The notes under the pieces were generated by a model that saw only the letters and a program-made list of their open reading frames with translations, was not told the DNA's origin and did no database searches. The position numbers were made by a program, and so were the translations under genes. A DNA stretch of 64,000 nucleotides. Origin: an uncultured Bacteroidales bacterium. GTDB taxonomy: Bacteria > Bacteroidota > Bacteroidia > Bacteroidales > SZUA-534. Every line of letters begins with the position of its first letter. Position 1 is the first letter of the stretch. This document shows positions 773-57,811 of this stretch, in pieces. The stretch lies in contig CADASL010000007.1 in the NCBI GenBank assembly GCA_902790595.1, positions 30,200 through 94,199 of the forward strand, read 5' to 3'.

Positions 773-829
773 CGGAAACAACCGCCACCTAAGTTCAAAA
801 TAGAAGTGCCAAGTTGAAAATCTTTTCAT

Positions 830-837
830 TATCTTTG
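830..837 (+). promoter_or_regulatory. Candidate Bacteroidota -7 promoter element (TATCTTTG)
   Basis: Matches the TAnnTTTG consensus about 26 nt upstream of ATG 864. Confidence 0.4.
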
Positions 838-863
838 GCGTATTAACAATTAATTTCATCATA

Positions 864-1346: not shown

Positions 1347-1416
1347 AAAAGTAATTAACACGCGAACGTGCCGCACAACCGTTCTGCAATGTTTGATTTT
1401 AATTAATAGAAATAAT

Positions 1417-2256: not shown

Positions 2257-2408
2257 GATAACCTAAAAACAACAATAAGCTTTAGCGAAAAGCCTCCCAT
2301 ATCCGACTCACAACGCACTTCCGAAAAAAATCGTCGATTTTTCTGTTCCATAAGTAATAATCTATGACAAAATCAGTTATTTTTAATACGAACTAAAAAC
2401 GTAATACT

Positions 2409-3083
2409 ATGGAACTCAAAAAGAATCCACGAGCAGATTTAAGGCGGTACGCCGGACTGTTCTTCGAAGCAGGTTTGGTAGTTGCGTTAAGCGCCGTTCT
2501 GGCATCGTTCAACTACACTAACCACGAGCTAAACCGTATGGTTTTTAGCGGCATTGACAACATCGACTTCGAGGATGTGCTGATTCCCGTCACACACCCG
2601 AAGGAGATTGCACCACCTCCGGCTCCACCAAAAGTTGCCGAGGTTATTACAATCATCGAAAGCGAATCTGAATTGGAGGAGACGCTCGATATTGACGACG
2701 TTGAGGCAACCCAGGAGACTGCGATTACCATCATTGAGAGACCCGACGAAGCGGAAGAACCCGAGCCCGAAATCTTTTTCAGCGCCGAAGTCAATCCTTC
2801 GTTCCCCGGCGGAATGGCAGCCCTGTACAAGCTCATCGGCGAGAGGTTGAATTATCCCGAAGCCGCAAGGAGTAACGGCATTACAGGCAAGGTTCACCTC
2901 AAGTTTGTGATTAATAAGAAAGGCGAGGTTGAAAACGTTCAGATAACCCGAGGCGTTGACCCGCTGCTCGACCGCGAGGCCATCCGCGTGATTGAGGGGC
3001 TTCCACGATGGAATCCCGGCACACAACGCGGCAAACCCGTGAACGTGTGGTTCTCAATGCCGATAAACTTCCAACTAAATTGA
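2409..3083 (+). CDS. Energy transducer TonB (membrane-anchored form)
   Basis: MELKKNPRADLRRY tail, a TM helix (GLFFEAGLVVALSAVLASF), a PPPAPPKV Pro-rich spacer, an acidic stretch and a C-terminal TonB_C domain. Confidence 0.85.
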   Translation: MELKKNPRADLRRYAGLFFEAGLVVALSAVLASFNYTNHELNRMVFSGIDNIDFEDVLIPVTHPKEIAPPPAPPKVAEVITIIESESELEETLDIDDVEATQETAITIIERPDEAEEPEPEIFFSAEVNPSFPGGMAALYKLIGERLNYPEAARSNGITGKVHLKFVINKKGEVENVQITRGVDPLLDREAIRVIEGLPRWNPGTQRGKPVNVWFSMPINFQLN

Positions 3084-3094
3084 CAGATTAAAAG

Positions 3095-3121
3095 TGCCGG
3101 CCAGAGCGCCGGCATTTTTTT
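3095..3121 (+). terminator. Rho-independent terminator
   Basis: TGCCGGC-cagagc-GCCGGCA stem-loop followed by T7. Confidence 0.7.
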
Positions 3122-3236
3122 GGCTGGTTGCGGCTTTTCTGATTCAACCGTCAAAAAAGTTTCTTTTACATTGACATATTATTATAAAAAATTCTACTTT
3201 TAGCGGCTGAAAAAACTAATACTAATAATAAACGCT

Positions 3237-3917
3237 ATGGAACTTAAAAAGAATCCAAAAGCCGACTTACGGCGATACAGCGGATTGTTTCTGGAAGTGG
3301 GATTTGTAGTGGCTTTGTGCGCTATTTTGGGTGCGTTCAGCTACACAATTCACGAGAAGAACACCGCTGGTTTCGGTGAGCTTGAAGATGTCATCGCCGA
3401 AGAGGAAATCATCCCAATCACACGCCAACAGGAGATAACTCCTCCCCCACCGCCGGAGGTTCCGAAGGTTGCCGAGGTAATCAACATTGTTGACGATGAC
3501 GTTGAGATTGACGACGAGCTCGATATTGAGGACGTTGAGGCCGACCAGGATACCGAGGTGGAAATCGTTGCTATGCAAGAGGAGGAAGAGGAAGAGGAAG
3601 CCGAAGTATTCTTCATTGTTGAGAATATGCCCGAATTCCCCGGCGGCGAGCTTGCAATGCGCAAATATCTGGCCGAGCACACCCAATACCCCGAGATTGC
3701 CAAGGAGAACGGTCTTTCGGGAAAGGTTTTCGTTCAGTTCGTGATTAACCAGAAGGGTGAAATCGAGAACGTGAAAATCGCCCGTGGTGTTGACCCCGCA
3801 TTGGATAAGGAAGCCATCCGCGTGGTACAGAGCCTTCCAAAGTGGAAACCTGGCTCGCAGCGTGGAAAACCGGTGCGCGTGTCATTCACAGTGCCAATCA
3901 ACTTCCAGTTGAACTAG
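3237..3917 (+). CDS. Energy transducer TonB (membrane-anchored form)
   Basis: MELKKNPKADLRRY tail, a TM helix, PPPPPEVPKV spacer, an E/D-rich stretch and a TonB_C domain ending PKWKPGSQRGKPVRVSFTVPINFQLN. Confidence 0.85.
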   Translation: MELKKNPKADLRRYSGLFLEVGFVVALCAILGAFSYTIHEKNTAGFGELEDVIAEEEIIPITRQQEITPPPPPEVPKVAEVINIVDDDVEIDDELDIEDVEADQDTEVEIVAMQEEEEEEEAEVFFIVENMPEFPGGELAMRKYLAEHTQYPEIAKENGLSGKVFVQFVINQKGEIENVKIARGVDPALDKEAIRVVQSLPKWKPGSQRGKPVRVSFTVPINFQLN

Positions 3918-9610: not shown

Positions 9611-9820
9611 TGTGATGATGTTTTTATAATTCAAATGCAAGATATAACGTTTTCGCAAACATTGGAATCATTTGATTTCAAAATCGCTTTCGCGGATATT
9701 CTGACACATAAACTTCTATCACAATCGTGAAAACGGCCATAACAGATTCTGCTTGCAGATTTGGTTTAGTTGCCTAAATTTGGGCTACTATTTTTTCACA
9801 TTAAAACAACATTTTCGATT

Positions 9821-10465
9821 ATGGAAAACGCATTAGTTTGGTTAAAAAGAATCAGGAACACAATCGGGTTCCTTGGTATGTTACTTCCCTGGATAGCACT
9901 GTTGGGAACATTTTTGGCATCAAAACATATTGATATAACTCCTACTTTTTGGAAGGAACTTTCCATTTCAGCCACCTACTATGTTACCCCGGCTCTTACT
10001 GGAATACTGACAACGGCTGCTGTTGTTTTAATATGTTATTATGGATATGGTCCAGAAGACGACATTCCAACTACCGCAGCGGGTGTATTTGGGTTAATGA
10101 TCGTACTATTTCCTTGCAGCTGTGACCTTTCTGCTGGTAAAATTGTAGGTTTCTTTCAATTGCAAGCTGAAACATCTCACATCATACACTGTATATCTGC
10201 GGTTTGCTTCTTTCTGTTACTTTCTTATATCAGTCTTTTCTTGTTTACCAAAAGCTATCCTGACAAGGAACAAACCGCACAAAAGAAGACGAGAAACAAA
10301 ATTTATATTACCTGCGGAATCGGAATGCTGGCGGCTTTAATCCTAATGCCCCTGCACATAGATTTTTACGCAAAGACTTTTATTGTAGAGGCAATCGCAC
10401 TCACCTTCTTCGGCATAAGCTGGCTTGTGAAAGGACAAGTGTTCGGGCTTTTTGCGGATAAATAA
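9821..10465 (+). CDS. Multi-pass membrane protein of unknown function
   Basis: About six hydrophobic helices. ATG at 9821 (MENALVWLKRIRN). Its last 24 codons are duplicated at 14101-14175. Confidence 0.7.
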   Translation: MENALVWLKRIRNTIGFLGMLLPWIALLGTFLASKHIDITPTFWKELSISATYYVTPALTGILTTAAVVLICYYGYGPEDDIPTTAAGVFGLMIVLFPCSCDLSAGKIVGFFQLQAETSHIIHCISAVCFFLLLSYISLFLFTKSYPDKEQTAQKKTRNKIYITCGIGMLAALILMPLHIDFYAKTFIVEAIALTFFGISWLVKGQVFGLFADK

Positions 10466-10468
10466 TTG
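10392..10468 (+). repeat. Left copy of a 77-nt direct repeat (3' end of the membrane-protein gene)
   Basis: Recurs at 14102-14178, offset 3710 nt. Over the 74 nt of the repeat up to and including the stop codon, 69 positions are identical. Confidence 0.9.
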
Positions 10469-10512
10469 TTGCATAACGGCAATTATGAGTCGAAAAACAC
10501 AGCAGGAGTATT

Positions 10513-11154
10513 ATGAATAATCCGTGGGAAGAGATCAGTTTGGACGATTATGAGAATCATATGAGCCTTGATTCCGTAAAACAACTCCAAGCTATGAATA
10601 AAATAATGGAGGAACAGTTTGATGCATATCCTGCTTCCACGGCTATGGTGCTTGGTGTTGCCGGAGGAAATGGCTTGGAACATATAAGGCGGAATAAGTA
10701 TCAGACCGTTTATGGCGTGGATATTAACGGAGATTATCTTCGCACGGTTTCGGAAAGGTATGCCGACCTGTCGGATGTGCTGAAGTGTTTGAAGATAGAC
10801 CTAATCTATGAAACGGATAAGCTTCCCGAGGCGCAGCTGCTGATAGCAAATCTTCTTATCGAGTATATTGGTTATGATGTATTTCAGAGAGTGATCCGTA
10901 AAGTGAATCCTGAATATGTGTCTTGTGTGATTCAGATTAATACGGATGATAAGCAGTGGGTATCAGATTCGCCTTATCTACACGCTTTTGACAGGCTTGA
11001 TGAGGTACATCATCAGATGGACGGGAATCTTCTTTCGACAAAATTGATGGAGATAGGGTATAAAGAGATACTTCAAAAAAGGACCGCACTTCCTAATGGA
11101 AAGGCATTATTAAGAATGGATTTCATAAAAGGACAACAAACAAAGGAGGAGTAA
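10513..11154 (+). CDS. Class I SAM-dependent methyltransferase
   Basis: VLGVAGGNGLEHI glycine-rich SAM motif followed by the acidic YGVDIN loop. AGGAG lies 4 nt upstream of the ATG. Confidence 0.75.
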   Translation: MNNPWEEISLDDYENHMSLDSVKQLQAMNKIMEEQFDAYPASTAMVLGVAGGNGLEHIRRNKYQTVYGVDINGDYLRTVSERYADLSDVLKCLKIDLIYETDKLPEAQLLIANLLIEYIGYDVFQRVIRKVNPEYVSCVIQINTDDKQWVSDSPYLHAFDRLDEVHHQMDGNLLSTKLMEIGYKEILQKRTALPNGKALLRMDFIKGQQTKEE

Positions 11155-11703
11155 ATGATACTATTAGTTGTAGATACCCAAAAGGGCTGTTTTGACGAAA
11201 GGTTATATTCGTTTGAAAGGGTAAGAAAAAATATAAAACAGTTAATTACTATAGCAAGAGAGAATAATGTTGAGGTTGTATATGTTCAGCACGATGACGG
11301 CCCTGGTTCTGGTCTGGACAAAGCAACGGATAACTATGAGATATATGAAGATTTTGCACCGAGGAAAGATGAAAGGCGTTTTGAAAAGAATGTAAACAGT
11401 GCTTTTCATCCTATGACAGGATTGACAGAATATCTGCAGTCTAAGGGGGAAAAAGATATTATAACAATCGGAGTGTCAACAGATTATTGTATGGATGCAA
11501 CGATTAAAAGCGGTTTTGAAAAAGGCTTCAACTTATTTGTTCCTTCATACACAAACTCAACCTATGATAATCCGTATTTTGATAAGGAAACTGCCTACAA
11601 GTATTTTAATGAATTTATGTGGGGAACACGTTATGCGAAGATAATTACTGTTGAACAAGCTATCCAACTTTTACAATCCAAAATATCAACTACGGATATA
11701 TAA
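11155..11703 (+). CDS. Isochorismatase-family cysteine hydrolase
   Basis: LLVVDTQ (Asp), EKNVNSAF (Lys) and VSTDYCMDAT (Cys) form the family triad pattern. The ATG directly abuts the upstream stop, and AAGGAGG lies 5 nt upstream. Confidence 0.8.
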   Translation: MILLVVDTQKGCFDERLYSFERVRKNIKQLITIARENNVEVVYVQHDDGPGSGLDKATDNYEIYEDFAPRKDERRFEKNVNSAFHPMTGLTEYLQSKGEKDIITIGVSTDYCMDATIKSGFEKGFNLFVPSYTNSTYDNPYFDKETAYKYFNEFMWGTRYAKIITVEQAIQLLQSKISTTDI

Positions 11704-11755
11704 ATAGTATTACGAACTAATAGAAAGTAATTTAATAGTTGGGCTTGTTTTGCAA

Positions 11756-12307
11756 ATGATTTACGTCAAAGCCACATCAAACCAAATTGATGAAATAATG
11801 GCGGTTTATTCCGCGGCCATAACCGCGATGGAAAATTCGGGCATTCACCAATGGGACGAGATTTATCCTGACAAAACCACTATTGCCAACGACATTTGCA
11901 AAAATCAAATGTATGTCGGAATAATTGACAATAAAATTGCCGTTTGCTTTGCGTTGAGTGAAGATTGCGACGAACAATATAAAAACGGCAAATGGGCATA
12001 CCCTAACTCAAAATTCTGTGTTATTCATCGATTGTGCGTCTCGCCCGAGTTTCAGCATAAGGGAATTGCGTCTCAAGCAATGTCATATATCGAAAAACTT
12101 TGTAAATCTGTTGGATACAATTCAATCCGTTTAGATTGTTTTACACTCAATCCGTATTCAAAAAGACTTTATGATAAGGCTGGTTACAAAGTAGTCGGTT
12201 ATGCGGATTGGCGCAAAGGCAGGTTTGAATTGAGAGAGAAGATTCTCCAAAATCTCGCCGCCGCTCGCCAAAAAGCCACGTCCCGAACCGATAATACGGC
12301 TTTGTAA
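11756..12307 (+). CDS. GNAT family N-acetyltransferase
   Basis: RLCVSPEFQHKGIASQAM acetyl-CoA-binding motif A (Q/RxxGxA). ATG at 11756; the ORF-track start at 11750 is TTG. Confidence 0.85.
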   Translation: MIYVKATSNQIDEIMAVYSAAITAMENSGIHQWDEIYPDKTTIANDICKNQMYVGIIDNKIAVCFALSEDCDEQYKNGKWAYPNSKFCVIHRLCVSPEFQHKGIASQAMSYIEKLCKSVGYNSIRLDCFTLNPYSKRLYDKAGYKVVGYADWRKGRFELREKILQNLAAARQKATSRTDNTAL

Positions 12308-12689
12308 AACGCTGATTATCATTGGCATTGGGAATGTTGCTGTTTTGGTACACATTAATAATCAGCCAATTAGCTCCACAAAACAGATTTTATGGCGTTT
12401 TTCCGATTCTATTTTCAGCAAAAAATCAAAAAAATCACAAACGTTTGAATCGTGTTTATAACACTGAATATCAGAGTGTAACAAAACGGCAACACTGTTA
12501 AGATTTTGTCATTGCAAACCACTTATCAATTTGAATATCAAAAACATAAATAGCAACACACATTTAAAAACACTGAACGTCAAATTGTTAACTGCGTTAG
12601 ATTTGTCAGTGACAAGTTCAGAGAACGGAACAGAATTGTTTTGTAAAGATTTTAAAACGTAAATAATAACATTAGAGAGGTTTTTTATT

Positions 12690-14093
12690 ATGCAAGAGAA
12701 TTTTTTTGAATCAGTATCAAAGCCATTGAGGAATAAATTGATATTTGAGATGGCGAAAGAGTATGCATTTGATTATATAGATGGAATTTCAGAGCGGAAT
12801 GTGTATCCAAAGGAGGAGGATTTACTAAAGCTTAAGAGTTTTTATGAACCTCTACCTCAAATCGGTACAGATGAAGAGGAAATTTTGTCAACGCTTCATC
12901 TGAATGGTTCGCCCAATACATTAGCGCAGACCGGTGGAAGATATTATGGATTTGTGAATGGCGGTGCGTTACCGGTCACACTTGCAGTCAGGTGGCTGAC
13001 TGATGTTTGGGATCAGAATTCCGTACTCTATGTTGCATCACCTGTTGCAGGCGTAATTGAAGAAGTATGTGAGAAATGGATTGTTGATTTATTTGAACTT
13101 CCCGCAGAAACTGCGATGGGATTGGTGGGCGGTTCTTCGGATGCTTCTCTATGTGCACTGACCGTTGCACGAAATACCATATTGGAACGTAACGGCTACA
13201 ATATTTATGAAAATGGATTAATGGGTGCCCCTGAGATTCGTGTTGTATTAAGTGAAAATGCTCACGCAACCATCTTCAAAGCCTTATCTGTTTTGGGAAT
13301 CGGTTCCAAGAATATAATCAAGGTTGAGTCAAATCCGGATGGGACAATGCGTTTGGATAAGTTGCCTGAATTAGATGAAAAAACGATTCTGATTCTTCAA
13401 GCCGGCAATGTAAATACAGGAGCATTCGATCAGTTCGATACACTCTGTGATCTGGCCAATGAAAAGAATGCCTGGATCCATATTGATGGAGCGTTTGGAC
13501 TATGGGCAAAAACAAGCAAGGTATATGCTTATCTGGCAAAGGGAATGGAAAAGGCTACTTCGTGGTCTGTCGATGCACATAAAACATTAAATGTTCCATA
13601 CGATTGCGGAATTGTTCTTTGCAAATACCGGGATGCTTTCTGCAAAGCATTACAAGCAAATGGAGCCTACATCATTTACAGTGGGAAACGAGATGGTATG
13701 CTATATACAACGGCTATGTCAAGAAGAGCAAGAGCTTTCGAATTGTGGGCTGCAATTAAGTACTTAGGCAAAGAAGGAATTGCAACTCTTGTGGAAACTC
13801 TTTGTAGGAATGCAAAAACCTTTGCCGGACGACTGTCACAACTTGGATTTACGATACTGAATGATGTTGTGTATAATCAAGTACTGATACAGTACGTAGA
13901 TGATGAGATGACAAAACGTGTTCTTGAATATGTGCAAAATGATCGTGTGTGCTGGTGTGGCCCGACACAATGGAAAGGAAAAATGGCAATCCGATTAAGT
14001 GTATGCTCTTGGGCGACCACGAAGGAAGATATTGAATTGTGTGTCGATAGTTTTAAAAGAGGAATTGAATATACAAGAGAGAATATCTTTTAA
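12690..14093 (+). CDS. PLP-dependent group II (aspartate aminotransferase fold) decarboxylase
   Basis: 467 aa. SVDAHKTLNVPYDCG carries the PLP-lysine motif (S-x-D-x-H-K) of group II decarboxylases. GAGAGG lies 9 nt upstream of the ATG. Confidence 0.8.
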   Translation: MQENFFESVSKPLRNKLIFEMAKEYAFDYIDGISERNVYPKEEDLLKLKSFYEPLPQIGTDEEEILSTLHLNGSPNTLAQTGGRYYGFVNGGALPVTLAVRWLTDVWDQNSVLYVASPVAGVIEEVCEKWIVDLFELPAETAMGLVGGSSDASLCALTVARNTILERNGYNIYENGLMGAPEIRVVLSENAHATIFKALSVLGIGSKNIIKVESNPDGTMRLDKLPELDEKTILILQAGNVNTGAFDQFDTLCDLANEKNAWIHIDGAFGLWAKTSKVYAYLAKGMEKATSWSVDAHKTLNVPYDCGIVLCKYRDAFCKALQANGAYIIYSGKRDGMLYTTAMSRRARAFELWAAIKYLGKEGIATLVETLCRNAKTFAGRLSQLGFTILNDVVYNQVLIQYVDDEMTKRVLEYVQNDRVCWCGPTQWKGKMAIRLSVCSWATTKEDIELCVDSFKRGIEYTRENIF

Positions 14094-14100
14094 TGTTTAA

Positions 14101-14175
14101 ACAATCGCTCTCACATTCTTCGGCATAAGTTGGCTTGTGAAAGGACAGGTGTTCGGGCTTTTTGCGGATAAATAG
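14101..14175 (+). pseudogene. Displaced 3' fragment (24 codons plus stop) of the 9821-10465 membrane-protein gene; right copy of the direct repeat
   Basis: Translates in frame to TIALTFFGISWLVKGQVFGLFADK*, against AIALTFFGISWLVKGQVFGLFADK* in the intact gene. There is no upstream coding continuation. Confidence 0.85.
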
Positions 14176-14297
14176 TTGCGCAACCATAAAATTGGCAAGC
14201 CTTGCTGATTGTGTACGGCATAATCGCCCTTGATATTAACGAATATCGCGGCGGAATCGGCTAAAAATTCATTGATTCCGCCCTTATTCTTAACAAT

Positions 14298-14377: not shown

Positions 14378-15595
14378 TCATTTGTAAATTACCCAATCGA
14401 ATTGTGGTTTAGCAATATAATTTCCTTGCTTGTCAATTATGCCCCATTTATTATTTACTTGAACAAAAATGATATTGTTGTATGTTTTTAAGAAATCAAA
14501 ACGAGGGGTTATAACTATTTCACCCTTTTTATTGATACACCCGTATTTGTTTTTTAATTTAATACGAGCCAAGCCATTATCTTCAAAATCCCAAGCATTA
14601 TCAAATTGCAGCCTAATAACTACCTTCCCGTTTTTATCAATAAATCCATGCTTGTCGTTTAGTTCCACATGGGCTATCCCATTGTTTGCATAATCCCAAG
14701 CATAGTCATATTGTAAATCGACTACCATTTTGCCTGTTTTGTCAACAAATCCATATTTGTCATTTAATTTGACAACAGCCAAGCCAATGCTTGTAAAATA
14801 CTCTGCCCAATCGAATTGTGGTTCAATAACAATTTTTCCGTTTTCGTCAACATATCCCCATTTACCATCTATTTTTACACGAGTCAAGTCTGTGTCTTTA
14901 AAATTCCCAGCATCGTCAAATTGGGGTTCGATAACGATATTACCGGTTTTATCAATAAAACCTATTTTGCCTCTTAATAATACGCGCGCCAAACCATTGT
15001 TTGAAAAAGGAGAAGCATAGCCGAACATCGGTTCGATAACCATTTGACCGGTTGTATCAACGTATCCCCAAAGTCCCTTACGAACGGAAGCCAATCCATT
15101 ACTAAAAGAAGATCCAGTGAAAAACTGCGGCTCAACGACCATTTTACCGGTTTTATCAATAAATCCCCATTTACCATCTTTTTTCACAAATGCCAAGCCA
15201 ACGTCATAATAATCTATAGCATCATCAAACTGTGGTTTAATAATTATTTCACCGGTTTCGTCTATATATCCATATTTCCCACTTGATTTGACAAGAGCCA
15301 AGCCACTGTTTGAAAAATTAGAAACCCTGTCAAACTGTGGCTCAATAACGGTTTTGCCTGTTTTATCGACAAATCCATATTTGCCATCTAATAATATACG
15401 AGCCAACCCGTTATTAGGAAAATAATAAGCATCGTCAAATTGCGGTTTGATAATCCAATTGCCTTTCTTGTCGATATAGCCACTCTTACCATCAATTCCG
15501 GCAGGAATTAATAAATTGTCACTATTAGTGTTTTGTCCAGTGGCAAAATTTGCAGTAACAAACAGCAAACAGAGCGTTAAAATATTAGGTTTCAT
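14378..15595 (-). CDS. WG-repeat (KWG) protein, secreted, about 11 tandem 35-aa repeats
   Basis: Signal peptide MKPNILTLCLLFVTANFATGQ, then repeats of the type GKYGFVDKTGKxVIEPQFDxAxxFSNNGLARVKL. The locus is AT-rich. Confidence 0.85.
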   Translation of the reverse strand: MKPNILTLCLLFVTANFATGQNTNSDNLLIPAGIDGKSGYIDKKGNWIIKPQFDDAYYFPNNGLARILLDGKYGFVDKTGKTVIEPQFDRVSNFSNSGLALVKSSGKYGYIDETGEIIIKPQFDDAIDYYDVGLAFVKKDGKWGFIDKTGKMVVEPQFFTGSSFSNGLASVRKGLWGYVDTTGQMVIEPMFGYASPFSNNGLARVLLRGKIGFIDKTGNIVIEPQFDDAGNFKDTDLTRVKIDGKWGYVDENGKIVIEPQFDWAEYFTSIGLAVVKLNDKYGFVDKTGKMVVDLQYDYAWDYANNGIAHVELNDKHGFIDKNGKVVIRLQFDNAWDFEDNGLARIKLKNKYGCINKKGEIVITPRFDFLKTYNNIIFVQVNNKWGIIDKQGNYIAKPQFDWVIYK

Positions 15596-20216: not shown

Positions 20217-20354
20217 ATGAAAACCCCATTCACCATATTAAAGTGGTTATTCATTTCATTAGGCGCTATATTTTTAATCCTTAATATTTTAGCGCTAACG
20301 CCCGCGCCATTTTATATGCACCGCAGTCTTGAAAAAAACTCAAAAAAATTTTAA
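20217..20354 (+). pseudogene. Truncated 5' copy (45 codons) of the DUF218/YdcF-like gene at 21630
   Basis: Hand translation gives MKTPFTILKWLFISLGAIFLILNILALTPAPFYMHRSLEKNSKKF*. This matches ..VKWLFVSFGAIFLILNILALTPAPFYMHRCLGED.. of the intact gene. The DNA repeat is 20240-20329 against 21677-21766. Confidence 0.8.
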
Positions 20355-20422
20355 ACCTGCGCAGCAATCTCGCGTAGGTTGCAATTTCCTTTGCACACAT
20401 AAACTTTAAAAACAAAAGAATT

Positions 20423-21154
20423 ATGGAAATGACAAGTGAGTGGGCTGAGAGCGAGTGCAGAATCGCCTGCAAGGGTGAGAACCCAAAGTTTAATTTCGAT
20501 GGTAACGAGTTCGACAGCAGATGTGAGAGTTACAAGTCAGCGTTGAAGGCGTTCAAGTCTTTGATGGAAGATGAGCGAAAAGAAATGGATTTCGATTTCA
20601 CGAAGTCCATACTGAACAGGCTGCTGGAAGGCAAGCCGTTGACACCGATAACTGAAAATGACTTTGTTGAGGGTAAAGGTCATATCGTATCGGATGAGTT
20701 TTTAAAGCGTTGCGGTTTGAAATCGTTCATACAATGCACAAGGTTGCGCAGTCTGTACAGAGAGGAGACGTCGGGTGGAGAAGTGCGGTACAGAGATGCG
20801 GAGAGAAGTTACTTTGTTGATGTGGACAATCCGTCACGCACCTACTTCACCGACTGCGAGTTCTTTGATGAGATGTTTCCGATAACGCTGCCGTATATGC
20901 CTGCGGTAGAGCCTTACAAGATATACGAGCGTACATTCTTGACTGATGAAAAAAACGGTGAGTTTGACACAAGGAATGTTATGTACGTGATAACACCGAG
21001 TGGCGAGAGAGTTGATTTGAACTTGTACTTCACGGAGGTTGATGGAAAGTGGAAACAGATAACGAAGGATGAATACGAAGAGTTGTGGAGCAAGCGCGTG
21101 GACAAGGCTAGTGACGATGACTACAAGGAATCGAAGAAAGACTGTGCAAAATAG
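20423..21154 (+). CDS. Hypothetical protein, 243 aa, acidic, no recognised domain
   Basis: Clean ORF inside the repeat-bounded segment. I recognise no motif in it. Confidence 0.55.
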   Translation: MEMTSEWAESECRIACKGENPKFNFDGNEFDSRCESYKSALKAFKSLMEDERKEMDFDFTKSILNRLLEGKPLTPITENDFVEGKGHIVSDEFLKRCGLKSFIQCTRLRSLYREETSGGEVRYRDAERSYFVDVDNPSRTYFTDCEFFDEMFPITLPYMPAVEPYKIYERTFLTDEKNGEFDTRNVMYVITPSGERVDLNLYFTEVDGKWKQITKDEYEELWSKRVDKASDDDYKESKKDCAK

Positions 21155-21197
21155 TGTTTATCTTTGAAGAAAGGAGTTGCGAAAAAAACAGTAAAAA

Positions 21198-21617
21198 ATG
21201 AACCTGCAAAAACTTGAGAAATTTATTGACCGTCAAAAAGTTAGCATTGTGGCTTCAATTGATGATGAAGGCTTTCCGAACTTGAAGGCGATGCTCAAGC
21301 CGCGCAAGCACGTGGGGCTGAGGGAGTTCTATTTTTCCACCAACACTTCGTCGATGCGCGTAAGGCAATATCAGGACAATCCAAAAGCGAGTATCTATTT
21401 CTACCACAAGGGTTTGATTCGCTACGAGGGCGTTATGCTCATTGGCAAAATGGCGGTTCTGACCGACCAAGAAAGCAAAAACTCAATTTGGAAGCGCGGC
21501 GACACAATGTTTTACAAAGGCGGCGTCACCGACCCCGACTATTGCGTGCTGAAATTCACCGCCGAAAGAGGTCGATACTACTGCGACCTGAAAACGGAGA
21601 GTTTTGAAATTGAATAA
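21198..21617 (+). CDS. Pyridoxamine 5'-phosphate oxidase-like FMN-binding protein (general stress protein 26 type)
   Basis: FPNLKAMLKP...FYFSTNTSSMRVRQYQDNPKASIYFY...IWKRGDTMFYKGGVTDPDYCVLKF is the split-barrel PNPOx-like pattern. Confidence 0.75.
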   Translation: MNLQKLEKFIDRQKVSIVASIDDEGFPNLKAMLKPRKHVGLREFYFSTNTSSMRVRQYQDNPKASIYFYHKGLIRYEGVMLIGKMAVLTDQESKNSIWKRGDTMFYKGGVTDPDYCVLKFTAERGRYYCDLKTESFEIE

Positions 21618-21629
21618 TTGCCTAACGTT

Positions 21630-22355
21630 ATGCGATTTGCAGCGGACATAAAACTAAAACGCACTATTGCCGCCGTAAAGTGGCTGTTCGTTTCGTTTGG
21701 CGCTATATTTCTAATCCTAAATATTTTAGCGCTAACGCCCGCGCCATTTTATATGCACCGCTGTCTGGGCGAGGATTCGGCGTGGAATAGCGATTCGACA
21801 ATCAAATTCCGTCCCGACTACGTTGTTATGTTCGGCGGCGCGGGAATGCCGTCGGGCAGCAATCTGATAAGGCTTTACTACACGGCCGAGTTTGCGCGAA
21901 ATTTGCATACGCCCGTTGTTCTTGTCCACCCGCAAGACTCTGTCTGTCAGGCTGAAATGACGAAATATCTTGTCCGCAGCGGCCTTGCGCCCGACAGCAT
22001 TTTTTATATGACTGGCGGAAGCAACACGCGCTCGCAGTCGGTCTGCCTTGCCGACAGTTTTCCGCAGTTGCGCAGCGTCAATTTACTGATAATCACCGCA
22101 CCCGAGCACCTTGCCCGAACCTTGAAATGCCTAAAACGGTGCGGCTTTAAAAGCATTCGTGGCATTGGCGCGTTCGAGAGCACCGTCAATTTTGACCTTA
22201 CGCTCGACAAGCGGAAACTAAAAGGAAATCAGCTCGTTCCTGACGTTGAGAGCACCAATCTGCGATACACGTTCTGGAACTATCTTCAACTCGAAATCGT
22301 CTGCTTCCGCGAGTATTTCGCAACAGCGTATTATTGGGTGAAGGGGTGGATATAA
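21630..22355 (+). CDS. YdcF/ElyC-like DUF218 family protein
   Basis: N-terminal TM helix, then the YVVMFGGAGMPSGSNLIRLYY block typical of DUF218. ATG at 21630. Confidence 0.7.
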   Translation: MRFAADIKLKRTIAAVKWLFVSFGAIFLILNILALTPAPFYMHRCLGEDSAWNSDSTIKFRPDYVVMFGGAGMPSGSNLIRLYYTAEFARNLHTPVVLVHPQDSVCQAEMTKYLVRSGLAPDSIFYMTGGSNTRSQSVCLADSFPQLRSVNLLIITAPEHLARTLKCLKRCGFKSIRGIGAFESTVNFDLTLDKRKLKGNQLVPDVESTNLRYTFWNYLQLEIVCFREYFATAYYWVKGWI

Positions 22356-54028: not shown

Positions 54029-54490
54029 ATGAAACGTAAAATTCTATCAATGTTCACTTTACTTGCCATTGCGGCAGGTTTTTCGTCGTGCGACGATGAT
54101 TATTGGAACACTGAAACGCGCGAAGATGTTGAATGGACCACACAAAAAGTCACCGTGAAAGAGCGCGACTGGGCATACCAAACAAACCACAGCGGCTCGG
54201 GCGGTTATTACTTTGCCGACATCAAAGTCCGCGAACTTGACGGCGATGTTTTCCGCCGCGGCCTTGTCTGCTGCTATATGTACGACGGCGACGACCTGCA
54301 GATTCCCCTGCCCTGCACCCGCACAATTAGCGACGGCACTCACGAGTGGCAGCGCACCATCGATTTTGAATTTTACCGCAAGGGCATAACAATCTACGTT
54401 ACCGACTTTATTCCGCAAAGCGAGGCCAACGCCAATTTCGAGCCCGACGAGCCCGAGGAAATGCAGTTCAGAATTGCATTGCTCAATTAG
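54029..54490 (+). CDS. Hypothetical lipoprotein, 153 aa
   Basis: Lipobox LAIAAGFSSC. No recognised domain. Confidence 0.6.
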   Translation: MKRKILSMFTLLAIAAGFSSCDDDYWNTETREDVEWTTQKVTVKERDWAYQTNHSGSGGYYFADIKVRELDGDVFRRGLVCCYMYDGDDLQIPLPCTRTISDGTHEWQRTIDFEFYRKGITIYVTDFIPQSEANANFEPDEPEEMQFRIALLN

Positions 54491-54544
54491 CCGATGTAAG
54501 ACACACTGAAATACATAGTTGAAAGTTTAATAATGATTGATGGG

Positions 54545-54577
54545 TCCGGTGGCGCATTTGTCACCGGATTTTTTTTT
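54545..54577 (+). terminator. Rho-independent terminator
   Basis: TCCGGTG...CACCGGA stem followed by T9. Confidence 0.75.
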
Positions 54578-54656
54578 GCGCTAACAACACATTCGCATTA
54601 CGAGTTCTTGACCGATTATACTCTCAATCGACGGAAAGCAATGAAGGCGCCCTACA

Positions 54657-54707
54657 TCAGGGCACCCAATCGTGCTTGAGCACGAAGGGAAATGCCGCCT
54701 TTGCAGA
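54657..54707 (-). pseudogene. Displaced 3' remnant of a homolog of the 55991-57103 outer-membrane gene
   Basis: The minus-strand frame reads ..SAKAAFPFVLKHDWVP*, compared with ..SAFDYTYAFTFVLKPDFVLWRR* at the end of the intact gene. The DNA core AATCG(T/G)GCTTGAGCACGAAGG is 20/21 identical between 54668-54688 and 56011-56031. Confidence 0.7.
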
Positions 54708-54730
54708 TTTCGCCACACGTTTCAGAATAA

Positions 54731-54799
54731 ATTATGCGCTTTACATTATGCGAATCACATAATTCGATTTGCATAATTCGAATCGCATAATTACATTTG
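54731..54799 (+). repeat. 14-bp-periodic repeat array: 2x ATTATGCG followed by 3x CATAATT (inverse orientation), overlapping a TACATTTG -7 element
   Basis: ATTATGCG at 54731 and 54745. CATAATT at 54758, 54772 and 54786. TACATTTG at 54792-54799, ending 27 nt before ATG 54827. Confidence 0.7.
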
Positions 54800-54826
54800 C
54801 GAAACAGATTTTAAAACATCCTGGCT

Positions 54827-55951
54827 ATGGAAAATCCTTTTGTTGTCGTTGGGAAAATACCCGACAAATACTTTTGCGACAGGGAAATGGAATCGAAAAA
54901 GATTATCCGTTCCATTACTAACGGGAATAATCTTGTCCTGATTTCGCTGCGAAGAATGGGAAAAACTGGGCTCATTCAGCATTGTTACGCTCAAAAGGAA
55001 TTAGAGGAACGATACTATACGTTTTTTGTGGATATTCTTCATACCGCGTCGCTGCAAGAATTCACTTTCGCTTTGGGGAAAGAAATATACAGGCAGATTG
55101 TTCCCAAAGGGAAAAAGGTCTCAATGGCATTTTTGCAGACCATTAAATCGATTGCCGGAAAATTCGGCATCGACCCCGCTACGGGTTTGCCTGCATTCAA
55201 TATCGATTTGGGTGATATTGAGAAGCCGGAACTTACTTTGGAAGAAATATTCACCTACCTGGAACAAGCCGACAAGCCGTGTATTGTGGCAATTGACGAG
55301 TTTCAGCAAATACATAAATATCCCGAGAAAAATATTGAAGCTTTGTTGAGAGGGCACATTCAAAAAATGCGGAATTGCCGGTTTATTTTCGCAGGAAGCG
55401 AGCGAAGCATAATGCAGAATATGTTCCTGAATTCCACCCGCCCCTTCTATCAAAGCGCCGACATAATGGAATTAAACGAGATTCCATTTGACGTGTATTG
55501 CGAATTTATTGTTAAGCAATTCAACAACAATGGTATAGCAATCGCTGCGGACACCGTGAAATACATTTACGACACGTTTGAAGGACACACGTTTTACATA
55601 CAAAAAACGTGTAATGAGGCGTTCTCGATAGTCGAAGGCAATGAATGTTCGTTGGGCATTGTGAAACAGGCCATTATGAATATTATTATTGATAAGGAAC
55701 CGACATATAAAGAGATTCTTTCGAACATATCCGACAAGCAGAAAATGGTTTTTTACGCCATAGCGAAAGAAGGTGCGGCAACACAAGTAACATCGTCGTC
55801 GTTTATAAAAAAACATAATCTGCCATCGGCAAGTTCGGTGCAGTCTGCTATGCAGAAACTAATTGAAAAAGGCGTTGTTACGGAACGAAACAAAGAGTTT
55901 ATTGTCGTGGACAGGTTTTTAGGATTATGGATTAAGGACGTTCTACTGTAG
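54827..55951 (+). CDS. AAA-type ATPase (archaeal-ATPase/DUF234-like family)
   Basis: Walker A LISLRRMGKTGL and Walker B-like CIVAIDEFQQI; 374 aa. Confidence 0.75.
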   Translation: MENPFVVVGKIPDKYFCDREMESKKIIRSITNGNNLVLISLRRMGKTGLIQHCYAQKELEERYYTFFVDILHTASLQEFTFALGKEIYRQIVPKGKKVSMAFLQTIKSIAGKFGIDPATGLPAFNIDLGDIEKPELTLEEIFTYLEQADKPCIVAIDEFQQIHKYPEKNIEALLRGHIQKMRNCRFIFAGSERSIMQNMFLNSTRPFYQSADIMELNEIPFDVYCEFIVKQFNNNGIAIAADTVKYIYDTFEGHTFYIQKTCNEAFSIVEGNECSLGIVKQAIMNIIIDKEPTYKEILSNISDKQKMVFYAIAKEGAATQVTSSSFIKKHNLPSASSVQSAMQKLIEKGVVTERNKEFIVVDRFLGLWIKDVLL

Positions 55952-55990
55952 CCGCCGACAATAAACATCCTGTTTTAAGAATTTTATGCC

Positions 55991-57103
55991 CTATCGCCGC
56001 CAAAGCACAAAATCGGGCTTGAGCACGAAGGTGAAGGCGTAGGTGTAGTCGAACGCTGAGTTTTTGAGGTCGTAGTAGCCGACGGCGGTCAAAGCGGCTG
56101 TGAAATAATTGGTTATCTCTTTGGCGAGATTCAGTTCGGCGGTGAGCATACTGCGGCGTTTCTGGTCGGTGGCGCCGTCGTACGAGAGGCTCATATACAT
56201 TGGGTTGCCTTGTTGGGTAATTAAACCGTCGGCAAGCCAATAGCCAACTGTCAGGCTGCTTTGGCCGTGCATCAGACTCACATCGGACAGCCAACCCCAA
56301 CCGCTGTGGTAGAGGCTTTCGGGCGTTGGCGAATTGTCTTTGTAACCAATCACTTGCGACGACGCGCCAATGCCGCTTACAAAACCGCTGGTGTGGCGAG
56401 TGAGCTGCGCGCCGCCCGAGACGTAGTAGAACAGCCGCATCGGGGTGGTGTCGGTATCTATCTGCCCGCCACGGTGGAAAATGGTGAACGAAGCGGGCAA
56501 CTCAACTTCGAGAGCATCGGTCTGCAAAGCCTTCCAACCAACCGACAGGCCACCGTAAATCTGCTCTTTCTTGTTGTCGTCGTGGAAGATAAAGTCCTGC
56601 CAATCGACCCACACATCAGTAAAAAGGCGATTGGTGTTGTACAGAATCTGCATTCCGTTCTCGTAGTTGTTGGTGAGTTGGCGCTCGCGGAACATAATGG
56701 GTTCGGGCAGGCGATGGAACGACGCGCCGTCGATTGTGCCCATTGTGACGGCCAACTTGTTGGTGTGCCAAGTGACGGAATAGACTGGCAGACAGTCGGT
56801 AAACTTGTCGAGGCCCGAGTATTTGGTGAGCCGCACACCCGCCTTCGCCTTTATGTTTGGCGAAAAATGGTACTCGAGCGCTGGCTGCAGATTGTAGCCA
56901 ATAAGTGTGTAGCCTTCAACTATCGGACCAAAGAACTCGTTGTTCCAAAGGAAGTTATAGTTGTCAATGGTCAAATGCAGCGCCGCCGAATCGGCCTTCA
57001 GCAACCGCTCAACATCGCTCTCGGCGGAAAAATACTGCGCTGTGGTAGCGCCTGGAATTAGAAAAATATAAATCGCTATAACAGCGTCCCGTAAATATCT
57101 CAT
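55991..57103 (-). CDS. Putative outer-membrane beta-barrel protein
   Basis: Signal peptide (IYIFLIPGATTAQ). Alternating aromatic/polar beta-strand pattern throughout. No recognised family. Confidence 0.55.
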   Translation of the reverse strand: MRYLRDAVIAIYIFLIPGATTAQYFSAESDVERLLKADSAALHLTIDNYNFLWNNEFFGPIVEGYTLIGYNLQPALEYHFSPNIKAKAGVRLTKYSGLDKFTDCLPVYSVTWHTNKLAVTMGTIDGASFHRLPEPIMFRERQLTNNYENGMQILYNTNRLFTDVWVDWQDFIFHDDNKKEQIYGGLSVGWKALQTDALEVELPASFTIFHRGGQIDTDTTPMRLFYYVSGGAQLTRHTSGFVSGIGASSQVIGYKDNSPTPESLYHSGWGWLSDVSLMHGQSSLTVGYWLADGLITQQGNPMYMSLSYDGATDQKRRSMLTAELNLAKEITNYFTAALTAVGYYDLKNSAFDYTYAFTFVLKPDFVLWRR

Positions 57104-57137
57104 AATCTTTTCGTTTTATGCGTCTGAAAGACGCGAT

Positions 57138-57753
57138 TTGCATAACCGGCAGTAAGCGAAGCGCAACTGCCGGCCTACAACCCACAAAGAAAAACACTCT
57201 GAAAGAGTGAACCTAATCTTTCAGAAAATATTTCTCATCTATCTGGATTCCACTTTCTTCAATAAAACGTCTGTACTCACTTTCGAATGTTTCCACCTTA
57301 TGGTGTTCCTTTTGATTTTTGATATAATTGATGACGGTTTCCTTTTCTTTCAAACTGTATGTAAACGCAGCATAACCTTCGGCCCAACCCTGAAAATTAG
57401 GAAACTCGCTGTTTGTTTTGAGCCATTTGCTTGTCGCGATTTTCAACTCTTGCATAAAAGACGCCACAGACAGCATCGGTGGCAAATCAACGAGCATATG
57501 AATATGATTCGGCATTCTGCCAATTCTGTATAAAACGGCATTTTTATTATTCACGAATCCCAATATGTAGGCATATAAATCTTTCTCGTGAGATTCGGGA
57601 ATGGTATTCAAACTGCATTTTGTGCGGAAAACAATGTGGTATAAAAAGCGAGTGTAACTCATTGTGTAATTGTTTTATGTTCAATCTTTCAGATTGTTTC
57701 TTTTTCCCGTTATCTTACCACGGATTGCGCTTCGCTTATCCGAGGTTATGCAA
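57138..57753. mobile_element. IS200/RAYT-like unit: Y1 (HUH) transposase-like gene bracketed by 36-nt imperfect inverted repeats that each fold into a hairpin
   Basis: Left repeat 57138-57173 is TTGCATAA-CCGGCAG-TAAGCGAAGCGCAA-CTGCCGG. The reverse complement of the right repeat 57718-57753 is TTGCATAA-CCTCGGA-TAAGCGAAGCGCAA-TCCGTGG. The 14-nt core is perfect (57153-57166 / 57725-57738). Confidence 0.7.
57213..57662 (-). CDS. IS200-like / REP-associated tyrosine transposase (Y1 HUH) family protein
   Basis: YHIVFRTK start, the MPNHIHMLV HUH motif, and a conserved Tyr region (YAAFTYS) with NYIKNQKEHH; 149 aa. Confidence 0.8.
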   Translation of the reverse strand: MSYTRFLYHIVFRTKCSLNTIPESHEKDLYAYILGFVNNKNAVLYRIGRMPNHIHMLVDLPPMLSVASFMQELKIATSKWLKTNSEFPNFQGWAEGYAAFTYSLKEKETVINYIKNQKEHHKVETFESEYRRFIEESGIQIDEKYFLKD

Positions 57754-57811
57754 GTTTTGTCCTTCGGACAATGCCTAATTTCCAAATCCTATATCGAAAT
57801 TTCAGAATCAA

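Follow-up and report, generated by a model that had tools for sequence, protein, structure and literature searches.

A single-gene ATPase cassette among alternative cargos at a putative recombination hotspot of uncultured rumen Bacteroidales

Introduction

Variable hotspots flanked by core genes have been described in Neisseria under the name of minimal mobile elements (Saunders & Snyder 2002, as presented in PMC3787668). Displaced or orphaned gene 3' ends are known from Rhs and CDI loci and from the T6SS effector-immunity arrays of Vibrio cholerae (PMC5361080). The locus analysed here resembles both in part, with an ATPase gene lying between an outer-membrane gene and a diverged relic of the 3' end of that gene. 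It is located in a 64,000-nt stretch of DNA, here called the window, from an uncultured Bacteroidales bacterium (SZUA-534; assembly GCA_902790595.1, contig CADASL010000007.1, positions 30,200-94,199, forward strand). The relatives with which it was compared (numbers with the prefix L) are all metagenome assemblies, and each cargo configuration among them was seen again in independent samples.

Results

The 3'-terminal codons of the minus-strand outer-membrane gene (Table 1), the translation of which ends in ...YAFTFVLKPDFVLWRR, were found again 1.34 kb downstream, where the minus strand of 54657-54707 reads ...SAKAAFPFVLKHDWVP up to a stop codon at 54657-54659. The repeat core AATCGTGCTTGAGCACGAAGG (54668-54688) is identical to 56011-56031 at 20 of 21 positions, and the ungapped repeat covers 34 nt, 28 of them identical (54662-54695 against 56005-56038, the copy in the intact gene). 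With up to three mismatches, the 21-mer occurs at two places only in the 64 kb, while none was expected from 100 shuffles. Local alignment of the terminal 60 nt of the outer-membrane gene against the entire 1.5 kb separating the two genes gave a score of 19.5, compared with a null mean of 8.3 and a null maximum of 14 (z = 10.9; 0/2000 shuffles reached 19.5), and a tblastn search with the last 30 residues of the gene retrieved AFPFVLKHDWV (E = 5.5e-4). A relic in the matching position was present in relatives, agreeing at 21/21 positions in L003 and 20/21 in L004. The original prediction had proposed a diverged second copy of the gene end, in frame with its own stop codon and separated from the intact gene by a single AAA ATPase gene on the opposite strand, in the order intact gene, insert and displaced older gene end. 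All of these points were borne out, and the similarity of the remnant survived statistical alignment.

Table 1. Features of the interval and its flanking genes, in window coordinates.
Feature	Position	Strand	Basis
Lipo153, predicted 153-aa lipoprotein	54029-54490	+	ORF; signal ending ...FSSC
Terminator-like hairpin and T-run downstream of Lipo153	54542-54581	+	13-pair stem, then TTTTTTT
Hairpin overlapping the relic stop codon	54645-54667	-	10 pairs, weak T-run
R0, relic of an older outer-membrane-gene 3' end	54657-54704	-	Sequence, statistics, relatives
Cassette leader	54705-54728	+	Common to L004, L073 and L027; not L003 or L065
Palindromic operator-like array	54729-54811	+	Units ATTATGCGAATC / GATTTGCATAAT
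ATPase cargo gene, 374 aa, AAA+ PF01637 ATPase_2	54827-55951	+	Pfam
Spacer, ATPase stop to outer-membrane gene stop, 39 nt	55952-55990	.	Sequence
Outer-membrane protein, lipid A deacylase family, 370 aa	55991-57103	-	PF28590 Lipid_A_deac

The relic, R0, reads ...AKAAFPFVLKHDWVP and contains a gene-like core (54662-54695); the conserved block has its inner edge at 54704. Its clearly gene-derived part covers approximately 54657-54695. The remaining 54696-54704 (...GCCGCCTTTGC) is kept with the relic in all relatives and is not clearly gene-like; it is weakly similar to GCCGCCAAAGC of the gene, a likeness too short to support a second, older relic, and neither microhomology nor a donor was identified for the joint. 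R0 carries GATTGGGTGC (DWV), the motif of the L013 allele of the gene. The hairpin at the relic stop codon is kept along with the relic in L003 and L004, and is possibly a relic of the old terminator of the outer-membrane gene, a function that we infer.

On the other side of R0 lies Lipo153, which is convergent with the outer-membrane gene and showed no match in Pfam or NCBIfam. An identical Lipo153 protein accompanies three different cargos. The only Rfam match between 53900 and 57800 was a sub-threshold L20_leader on the Lipo153 terminator, which was taken as chance and provides no RNA explanation. The PF28590 assignment of the outer-membrane protein was precomputed for this exact protein, and the NCBIfam model LpxZ_fam also matched it (E = 4e-49), below the cutoff (167 vs 460 bits). 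The gene is mosaic among relatives; in L009, for example, identity is 80-88% over most of its length but 98% across the final 100 nt, and in L007 the pattern is the opposite.

The ATPase gene is the sole long ORF between the repeat copies, and its product belongs to the ATPase_2 family (51.2 bits, gathering cutoff 33.2). Walker A (RRMGKT) and Walker B (VAIDEF) motifs were read from the translation, and the closest solved structures are 2qen and 2fna (E ~3e-4). The last 85 residues gave sub-threshold matches to the winged helices of Penicillinase_R, MarR_2, TrmB and LexA, and the C-terminus is predicted to form a probable winged helix. The protein has more than 8000 homologues, mostly in Bacteroidales. 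In PADLOC it only weakly matched the candidate families PDC-S27 (1.7e-5) and PDC-S01 (4e-5), and its designation as a defence gene or as part of a named PADLOC system was rejected on these matches. ATPases 89-91% identical to it are located in WYL-led defence-type islands.

Upstream of the gene, the inverted arms of the array (54730-54756 and 54766-54792) are followed by a -7 box, TACATTTG (54792-54799), which we take to be of the Bacteroidetes type, the consensus coming from Bacteroides promoters. ATPase homologues, including some as little as 44% identical, have a TTATGC...GCATAA motif just upstream of TAnnTTTG. In the comparison with 89-90% identical ATPases located elsewhere, nucleotide homology is limited to 54726/45-55950/83, and the array travels together with the gene, in agreement with the promoter and repeat array originally assigned to it. 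The cargo is a self-contained unit of palindromic operator array, Bacteroidetes-type promoter and AAA+ ATPase, and the ATPase would plausibly bind its own array and autoregulate. Part of the spacer behind the gene aligns with the post-ATPase spacer of L020, and the spacer differs between the window and L027.

The homology of L004 and L073 to the window extends to 54778, where L004 diverges; the array thus coincides with a breakpoint, and in L007, L012 and L046 arrays lie directly against stop codons. A role of the array as a recombination site was considered and rejected. Because it is conserved upstream of the -7 box throughout the ATPase family, an operator that doubles as shared homology is the simpler reading.

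The empty state of the site, which the original prediction had suggested looking for, was found in L014 and L015, two more distant rumen Salinivirgaceae. In these genomes the outer-membrane gene and Lipo153 are convergent and directly adjoining, separated by ~13-150 nt, and insert and relic are both absent. The ATPase gene was not found downstream of the outer-membrane gene in any of the 15 genome-collection relatives, which marks it as an insert.

At least three cargos occupy the interval between the same conserved-gene boundaries. The 9.7 kb of the window ending at 54704 and the 3.3 kb beginning at 55992 have counterparts in L065 with 97.2% and 96.4% identity, respectively, and between them L065 has a 5.5-kb WYL island in place of the 1.29-kb ATPase cassette. 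Both cargo types are therefore bounded by 54704/5 and 55991/2 in genomes that are 96-97% identical in their flanks, and in the comparison with WYL-island genomes the homology ends exactly at 54704. WYL-led islands of 3.8-5.7 kb without the ATPase were found in seven relatives (L003, L004, L065, L067 and L071-L073), in all of which the R0 block adjoins Lipo153; besides the window, the ATPase cassette is carried by L068-L070 and L074. R0 is present in carriers of both types (L065, L067-L074). On the side of the gene, at least seven different downstream contexts have their break no more than a few nt from the stop codon.

The head gene of the WYL islands encodes a 300-aa WYL+WCX regulator (WYL 2e-17, WCX 1.5e-10, PADLOC WYL 4e-31), and the following genes are of nuclease type (REase-ARP/PDDEXK_13, MBL fold, NERD-like and metallophosphoesterase). 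The cargo of the window itself contains no WYL/BrxR-type regulator. Some WYL islands adjoin a GH3 gene, and no GH3 3' relic bounding them was detected within the DNA examined. Pfam scans of all cargo ORFs detected no integrase or transposase in any cargo variant.

The type of cargo does not follow the similarity of the flanks. The two flanks of the window are 97.2-97.8% and 96.2-97.5% identical to those of WYL-carrying genomes, and only 95.1-96.0% and 94.0-94.5% identical to those of the ATPase carriers L068, L069 and L074. Relationships among the relatives shift from segment to segment.

The same cassette was found in L027 in a different downstream context and bounded by a perfect repeat of 37-40 nt that includes the stop codon. 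Its downstream BlaR-terminator-gene context is shared with L005 and L009, which are devoid of the cassette. The intact copy continues as ...CGGCGGTGA, whereas the relic continues as ...CGGCGATAA followed by a terminator of the L005/L009 type; the copies differ in an allele-specific manner immediately outside the repeat, including the type of stop codon. The inner junction, GAAGG|GAAATGCCGCCTTTGC, is identical in L027 and the window. These copies and this junction match the prediction of a crossover inside the R0 core.

A second site was found in L017-L019, where the ATPase cassette is flanked on one side by an intact WYL gene and on the other by 34-44 codons left from another WYL allele. This relic shows 45-65% protein identity to the adjacent WYL gene (E 1e-5 to 8e-8), and its nucleotide scores range from 21.5 to 44.5, compared with a null maximum of 14.5. 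Significant flanking gene-end repeats were restricted to the outer-membrane-gene site (window and L027) and the WYL site (L017-L019); none was significant in 14 other ATPase loci. The latter include the close homologues of L060-L064 (89-91% identical), which have other neighbours, and the more distant ATPases of L021-L026, L028, L043, L054 and L056. The expectation that homologous ATPases would also be flanked by fragments of their neighbours therefore held for L027 and L017-L019, but failed for L060-L064 and the other loci. ATPases with different neighbours and no remnant, as in L060-L064, had been named in advance as a finding that would refute the prediction, and they show that such repeats do not belong to the ATPase cassette as such.

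Since the ATPase cassette and the WYL islands share both boundaries, R0 predates the cargo and is not peculiar to it. It had originally been viewed as the footprint of the ATPase insertion, a view contradicted by the identical relic and inner edge that bound the WYL islands devoid of ATPase. The age attributed to the event fared differently: the relic is indeed old, as several genomes share it, but repeat divergence is no clock. The repeat copies come from different alleles, as seen in the DWV motif of R0, the stop-codon type of the L027 copies and the low identity of the WYL relics, and their divergence therefore cannot date the insertion, being that between donor and recipient alleles.

Discussion

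We consider it fairly probable that a recombination hotspot extends from the outer-membrane gene, at its stop codon, to the ~48-nt R0, and that 54705-55990 is one among the several alternative cargos that occupy it. The site presents an intact gene, foreign DNA and then a 5'-truncated copy of the 3' end of the gene, and R0 is best read as the scar of an old one-sided recombination at this hotspot. The outer-membrane and lipoprotein genes would ancestrally have been convergent and nearly abutting, and the outer-membrane gene would have been the anchor for a recombination that brought in foreign DNA, the far end of this DNA being joined inside the last ~15 codons of the resident gene by homology-facilitated illegitimate recombination. 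The incoming DNA would have brought an intact gene end, with the resident end displaced downstream to become R0. From then on, the outer-membrane gene on one side and R0 with the lipoprotein gene on the other could serve as homology arms, through which entire cargos would be exchanged between strains by ordinary homologous recombination. The pattern itself is observed, the cargos being the ATPase cassette, several versions of the island with a WYL/BrxR-like regulator, and BlaR/BlaI. L027 points to a further step, in which the R0 core would have recombined with an intact gene end in a differing downstream context, placing the cassette in a new genome with a fresh perfect 37-nt repeat. Such a step would be rare, because a patch of 37 nt (or 20/21 nt) is near the lower limit for RecA-type crossovers.

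The main competitor of this hotspot is site-specific integration, in which the last codons of the gene would be an attachment site used by a tyrosine or serine recombinase acting in trans, and the repeats would be attL and attR. Direct repeats of a gene 3' end are the classic signature of this process, and L027 has a perfect one of 37 nt. The breakpoints are sharp (...TTTGGCG near the stop, in seven contexts), and the window, L003, L004 and L027 have one and the same inner junction; the breaks at the stop codon and the inner edge 54704/5 shared by two unrelated cargos would also fit a trans-acting site-specific system. However, all cargo variants lack an integrase, the window and L027 carry the same cassette with different junctions at the gene stop, and the repeat copies derive from different alleles. 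The ends of the element are not constant and there is more than one target, the cassette lying beside the outer-membrane gene and also beside WYL with a WYL relic of ~128 nt, two targets without shared sequence. In addition, the downstream 'cargos' include core genes whose synteny is rearranged, such as tmk in L002 and L009. We regard this explanation as unlikely. A lower probability is given to the ATPase and its array being a mobile cassette that is mobilised in trans and targets the 3' ends of convergent genes with a long target duplication. The block does move as a unit, with homology to L017-L020 limited to array and gene, two different targets have relics of the neighbouring 3' end, copies of the array lie against the stop codons of other genes, and an IS200-like Y1 transposase gene is located 1.3 kb away. 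That gene was discarded as the agent, being absent from several relatives with the same relic, and IS200/IS605 transposition is not known to produce a target duplication. The cassette differs from a transposon or IS with a fixed target duplication in having neither a transposase nor terminal inverted repeats, the repeat search having listed no inverted repeat that pairs its ends. Moreover, R0 bounds cargos without ATPase or array (L003, L065), the duplication would be ~37 nt at one site and ~128 nt at the other with copies that are not sister sequences, and the array is an upstream operator conserved across the ATPase family whatever the context. Self-mobility was downgraded because flanking repeats are not general in the ATPase family, with no significant one at the loci of L060-L064 or at nine loci with more distant ATPases.

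Two further explanations concern the origin of the relic. It could be the end of a decayed tandem paralogue, a downstream copy of the outer-membrane gene deleted except for its last codons, with the cargo filling the gap. Its 28/34 match to the intact end and its resemblance to another allele (DWV) would agree with this, but none of 15 relatives has two copies of the gene and neither does L027, the empty sites consist of a single gene abutting Lipo153, and the duplication in L027 arises on a single-copy background of the L005/L009 type, which makes a paralogue very improbable. Hardly credible is the absence of any common origin, in which the likeness would reflect chance or a shared functional motif, for example a terminator hairpin. 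The relic core of the window does form a 5-bp hairpin (CGTGC-TTGA-GCACG); neither the L003 relic nor the gene itself has it, and the conservation therefore does not concern the hairpin. The similarity, besides its z value, is in frame with its own stop codon, and in L027 relic and gene end are identical for 37-40 nt, stop codon included. Chance similarity is refuted by the shuffle test and the perfect repeat of L027.

On the hotspot reading, the site of the cassette looks like an ordinary recombination scar and not like a new kind of mobile element. A possible but doubtful extension is that R0 is a working right-hand homology arm, the unit of gene body, cargo and relic being a natural knock-in construct mobilised by recombination. 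If so, a cargo could be placed behind the outer-membrane gene in any related genome, whatever the downstream DNA, and every such event would recreate a perfect repeat like that of L027. This reasoning would also apply to the WYL gene (L017-L019), and perhaps to the two other repeat-bounded cassettes of the window (10377-14178 and 20239-21766). If general, it would give single genes a recombinase-free portability among genomes that share one conserved gene.

The locus provides a base-by-base record of gene-content turnover at one hotspot of uncultured rumen Bacteroidota, with empty, filled and swapped states. Two cautions follow for genome scans: a direct repeat of a gene end is by itself no sign of an integrase-driven element, and the insertion cannot be dated from repeat divergence, as the copies may be different alleles. 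As by-products, a very large Bacteroidales ATPase_2 family was found to have a conserved upstream palindromic operator array, and close members of it to occur in WYL-led islands beside nuclease-type genes.

Among known systems, islands flanked by att sites share with this locus a direct repeat of a gene 3' end that flanks the insert and leaves the gene intact, but here the cargos have no integrase, the ends and repeat lengths vary, and the copies are of two alleles. Integron cassettes, too, consist of single genes, are bounded at one end by an imperfect palindrome and are found in variable arrays; in contrast, the ATPase has its own promoter, its palindromic array is upstream and operator-like across the ATPase family, and neither an IntI-type integrase nor an attC-like 3' site was seen in the cassette or the cargos. 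The defence islands led by a BrxR-family WYL gene resemble the alternative cargo of the relatives, which starts with a WYL+WCX regulator followed by nuclease-type genes, although the locus in the window has no WYL gene and no island gene reaches a named PADLOC system.

Minimal mobile elements, and core defence hotspots, which represent the same idea, are closer: unrelated whole-gene cargos lie between two conserved genes in close relatives, the cargo has no mobility genes, and exchange is attributed to homologous recombination in the flanks (PMC3787668). The present site differs in that one flank is a 48-nt relic of the other flanking gene, so that the interval is bounded by direct repeats, and in that it occurs in uncultured rumen Bacteroidota, for which no transformation system is known. 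The Rhs, CDI and T6SS arrays have the same topology of intact gene, new DNA and displaced older 3' end, and the mechanism proposed for them is also the same, with an anchor in the gene body, an illegitimate join at the far end and later spread via ordinary homologous recombination. In those arrays a different toxin domain is encoded by the new end, while the displaced piece keeps its link to an immunity gene. Here the encoded C-terminus is the same at both ends, the relic amounts to only ~15 codons, and gene and cargo are unrelated. The combination of a gene-end scar with cargo swapping is a known kind of event.

Gene content of the locus

The window derives from a rumen Salinivirgaceae-like metagenome scaffold; relatives' loci and metagenome contigs compared with it carry L numbers. 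The outer-membrane protein matched the NCBIfam LpxZ_fam model below its cutoff. The C-terminus of the ATPase showed a weak likeness to a winged helix, its closest solved structures were 2qen and 2fna, and PADLOC returned weak matches naming candidate families only.

Features of the ATPase cassette, its flanks and the adjacent transposase gene
Feature	Position	Strand	Remarks
Outer-membrane flank gene	55991-57103	-	Lipid A deacylase family; PF28590, precomputed
AAA+ ATPase, 374 aa	54827-55951	+	PF01637; Walker motifs seen in translation
Lipo153, predicted lipoprotein, 153 aa	54029-54490	+	Far side of insert; clear terminator after gene
Palindromic array	54729-54811		5' of ATPase gene
TAnnTTTG -7 box	54792-54799		5' of ATPase gene
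IS200-like Y1 transposase gene	57213-57662	-	Between outer-membrane gene and RuvB; PF01797, 1.6e-22

The Y1 transposase gene weakly matched a REP-associated tyrosine transposase model and is surrounded by hairpins (~57110-57210) and repeats (~57675-57775). It was present in L002, L003, L007, L027 and L065, absent from L004, L005 and L008-L013, and replaced in L068-L070 and L074 by a gene of 193-195 aa. A ~25-100-nt unit beside it (57675-57771) was multiplied in L027 and L067.

A displaced gene end beside the lipoprotein gene

The outer-membrane protein ends in ...YAFTFVLKPDFVLWRR (translation), and the same strand at 54657-54707 is translated as ...SAKAAFPFVLKHDWVP with its own stop. The highest-ranking direct repeat of the region links the two (54662-54695 and 56005-56038, 28/34 identical, with 20/21 in the core). 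A search of the window with the core 21-mer, allowing up to three mismatches, found two sites only, where shuffling predicts zero. The last 60 nt of the gene aligned locally to the whole 1.5-kb interval with a score of 19.5 (z=10.9), reached in 0 of 2000 shuffles (null mean 8.3, maximum 14), and tblastn with the last 30 residues of the protein gave E=5.5e-4. The similarity is therefore statistically significant, and the original prediction of a real gene-end copy, in the order intact gene, insert, displaced gene end, was correct. This relic is here called R0.

Other repeats were seen in the window. A first repeat-bounded cassette lies between 92-nt direct repeats (10377-10468 and 14087-14178, 89% identity) that are made of the 3' end of ORF 9770-10465, and its 3.6 kb of cargo encodes an isochorismatase, a GNAT acetyltransferase and a PLP-dependent decarboxylase. 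The second is bounded by 91-nt direct repeats (20239-20329 and 21676-21766, 91% identity); here the duplicated part is from the DUF218 gene (21618-22355), namely its 5' end. Among the cargo is a protein of 243 aa (20423-21154) that matches the Tad3 (Thoeris inhibitor) domain (E=5.5e-10). A 261-nt repeat family spans five tandem ORFs at 103-3853, with five copies spaced 834-904 nt apart (61-77% identity to the reference copy); the window's opening 42 nt recur twice more. A 405-aa protein (14378-15595) contains 11 WG-containing repeats (PF14903), coded by a 105-nt periodic DNA repeat.

One slot with several fillings

Scanning one genome per species with the outer-membrane gene yielded 15 loci (42-97% protein identity), none of which had the ATPase downstream of it (0/15). 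In L014 and L015 the outer-membrane and Lipo153 genes are directly convergent, ~13-150 nt apart, without relic; this is the empty state, so that comparing relatives did reveal the empty site sought. In L003, L004 and L010 the two genes are separated by 3.8-5.7 kb of other genes, and the remaining relatives have wholly different downstream synteny (tmk, BlaR/BlaI or M23). Homology among all relatives stops a few nucleotides from the outer-membrane stop codon, with at least seven different sequences after ...TTTGGCG. This 3' end is also a synteny breakpoint: tmk-type housekeeping genes come next in L002 and L009, BlaR/BlaI and then LysRS in L005, and an M23 gene, without Lipo153, in L008 and L011. 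All comparison sequences are metagenome assemblies, and each configuration was seen again in independent samples.

The same relic also lies beside Lipo153 in L003 and L004 (21/21 and 20/21 to the gene core, respectively), though their cargo is a WYL island. Homology between the window and L003 extends no further than the inner edge of the relic block (54704); with L004 it continues to 54778, within the array. The relic is a property of the slot and predates the cargo, to which it is not specific. The proposal that insertion of the ATPase gene produced it is not supported, since the same relic accompanies WYL islands.

A look-up of the exact Lipo153 protein returned ten places, of which five contain the ATPase cassette (the window, L068-L070 and L074), four a 5.5-kb WYL island (L065, L071, L067 and L072) and one a WYL-PDDEXK island (L073). 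Up to 54704, L065 matches the window at 97.2% identity for 9.7 kb, and from 55992 at 96.4% for 3.3 kb; the sequence between these points is unrelated. It follows that the ATPase cassette and the WYL island occupy one slot as alternatives.

The first gene of the WYL islands encodes a 300-aa WYL+WCX regulator, followed by variable genes for REase-ARP/PDDEXK_13 nucleases, an MBL-fold protein, DUF6946, NERD-like and metallophosphoesterase proteins and several unknowns. BrxR-type defence islands reportedly have this same architecture. A 431-aa MBL-fold island gene had a weak precomputed match to the anti-Pycsar Apyc1 family. Two different island genes of L003 (9498-10016 and 10509-11405; 172 and 298 aa), which also occur in L004, L007, L010 and L012, have a common N-terminal module (...YHFNPADF/Y.E.GRRLTDG...), suggesting that gene starts are also reused during cassette reshuffling.

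Signs of recombination in the flanks

Segment-wise comparison showed that cargo type is incongruent with flank similarity. The window flanks were 97.2-97.8% and 96.2-97.5% identical to those of WYL carriers, and 95.1-96.0% and 94.0-94.5% to those of the other ATPase carriers L068, L069 and L074, and kinship among carriers shifts segment by segment. The L009 outer-membrane gene is 80-88% identical to that of the window over most of its length and 98% in the last 100 nt; the pattern is the opposite in L007, and blocks lie inside the gene in L008 and L013. Among species-level relatives the gene is strongly mosaic overall (55991-57103 against L002-L013 and L027), with 63-88% blocks adjoining 94-100% blocks, and identity falls to 50-70% in its first ~100 nt (signal peptide).

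L027 has a 98%-identical ATPase at the outer-membrane gene, with BlaI and BlaR between cassette and Lipo153; in L005 and L009, BlaR, a terminator and the outer-membrane gene end are present and the cassette is absent. On either side of the L027 cassette stand the last 12 codons of the outer-membrane gene, as a perfect 37-nt repeat. Its inner junction, GAAGG|GAAATGCCGCCTTTGC, is identical to that of the window, and its spacer between the ATPase and outer-membrane stops is unlike that of the window. Directly beyond the repeat, the intact copy continues as ...CGGCGGTGA and the relic as ...CGGCGATAA, which is followed by an L005/L009-type terminator. A fragment consisting of gene, cassette and R0 may have recombined with a naive genome, with one crossover in the gene and one in R0, within its short gene-like core. 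The junctions are those expected of such crossovers and not those that target-site duplication or a fixed att junction would give.

The ATPase family and its array elsewhere

The ATPase homologue search gave more than 8000 matches; those at 89-98% identity form 14 clusters, followed by a cloud at ~60%. The 89-91% identical ATPases were found in WYL islands at another chromosomal place, where they have GH3 or patatin genes as neighbours and converge on the WYL gene; nucleotide homology to the window is limited there to the array and ATPase gene (54726/45-55950/83). Just 5' of the array in L017-L019 there are 34-44 codons left of a different WYL allele (45-65% identity, E 1e-5 to 8e-8; nucleotide scores 21.5-44.5, null maximum 14.5), and the same topology therefore exists at a second target. 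No significant flanking repeat was found at L060-L064 or at nine loci with more distant ATPases, nor was a GH3 relic bounding the WYL islands found in the flanking DNA examined. Among ATPases elsewhere, a fragment of the neighbour therefore flanks those of L017-L019, with nothing significant at these other loci; flanking repeats are occasional scars and no hallmark of the cassette.

A pattern scan of metagenome contigs for the array returned 32 DNA stretches, in 17 of which the match belonged to a group of three or more array motifs. The array was directly 5' of an ATPase homologue at eight loci (44-95% identity) and was also found beside WYL genes; homologues missed by the pattern still had TTATGC...GCATAA palindromes directly before the TAnnTTTG box. 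We read the array as the operator of the ATPase family, to which the winged helix of the ATPase itself may bind. Arrays without ATPase directly adjoin other genes' stop codons in L007, L012 and L046, and one is truncated in L004; these probably serve as shared homology for crossovers. In the metagenome contigs L036 (1165-1186) and L038 (228-249), the array lies just 3' of WYL genes that are only ~33% identical to the Salinivirgaceae island WYL genes, and the link between array and WYL islands therefore extends past this lineage.

Discussion

The account with the best support runs in three steps. In an old one-sided recombination, the incoming DNA would have been anchored in the gene and joined illegitimately inside the resident gene end, shifting ~15 codons of that end to form R0; homologous recombination through the flanks would since have filled the slot anew time and again; and the R0 core could now and then act as a short homology arm, as in L027.

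The main rival, a site-specific system acting in trans, would account for the sharp boundaries, but is unlikely: no integrase or transposase is encoded in any cargo examined, the junctions vary, a second target exists (WYL, L017-L019), and the repeat copies are mismatched alleles. This mismatch also means that repeat divergence cannot serve as the clock for insertion age that had been proposed. A self-mobile ATPase cassette is less probable again; the relic occurs with WYL islands too. Descent of R0 from a decayed tandem paralogue is slightly more doubtful than that, and chance similarity, against which the shuffles speak, is very improbable.

The proposed refilling of the slot through its flanks, after an illegitimate join, would combine two ideas from the literature. 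Minimal mobile elements between conserved genes are a published idea (PMC3787668), as is 3'-end displacement by homology-facilitated illegitimate recombination followed by spread via homologous recombination (PMC5361080). The locus is a well-resolved example of a kind already known.
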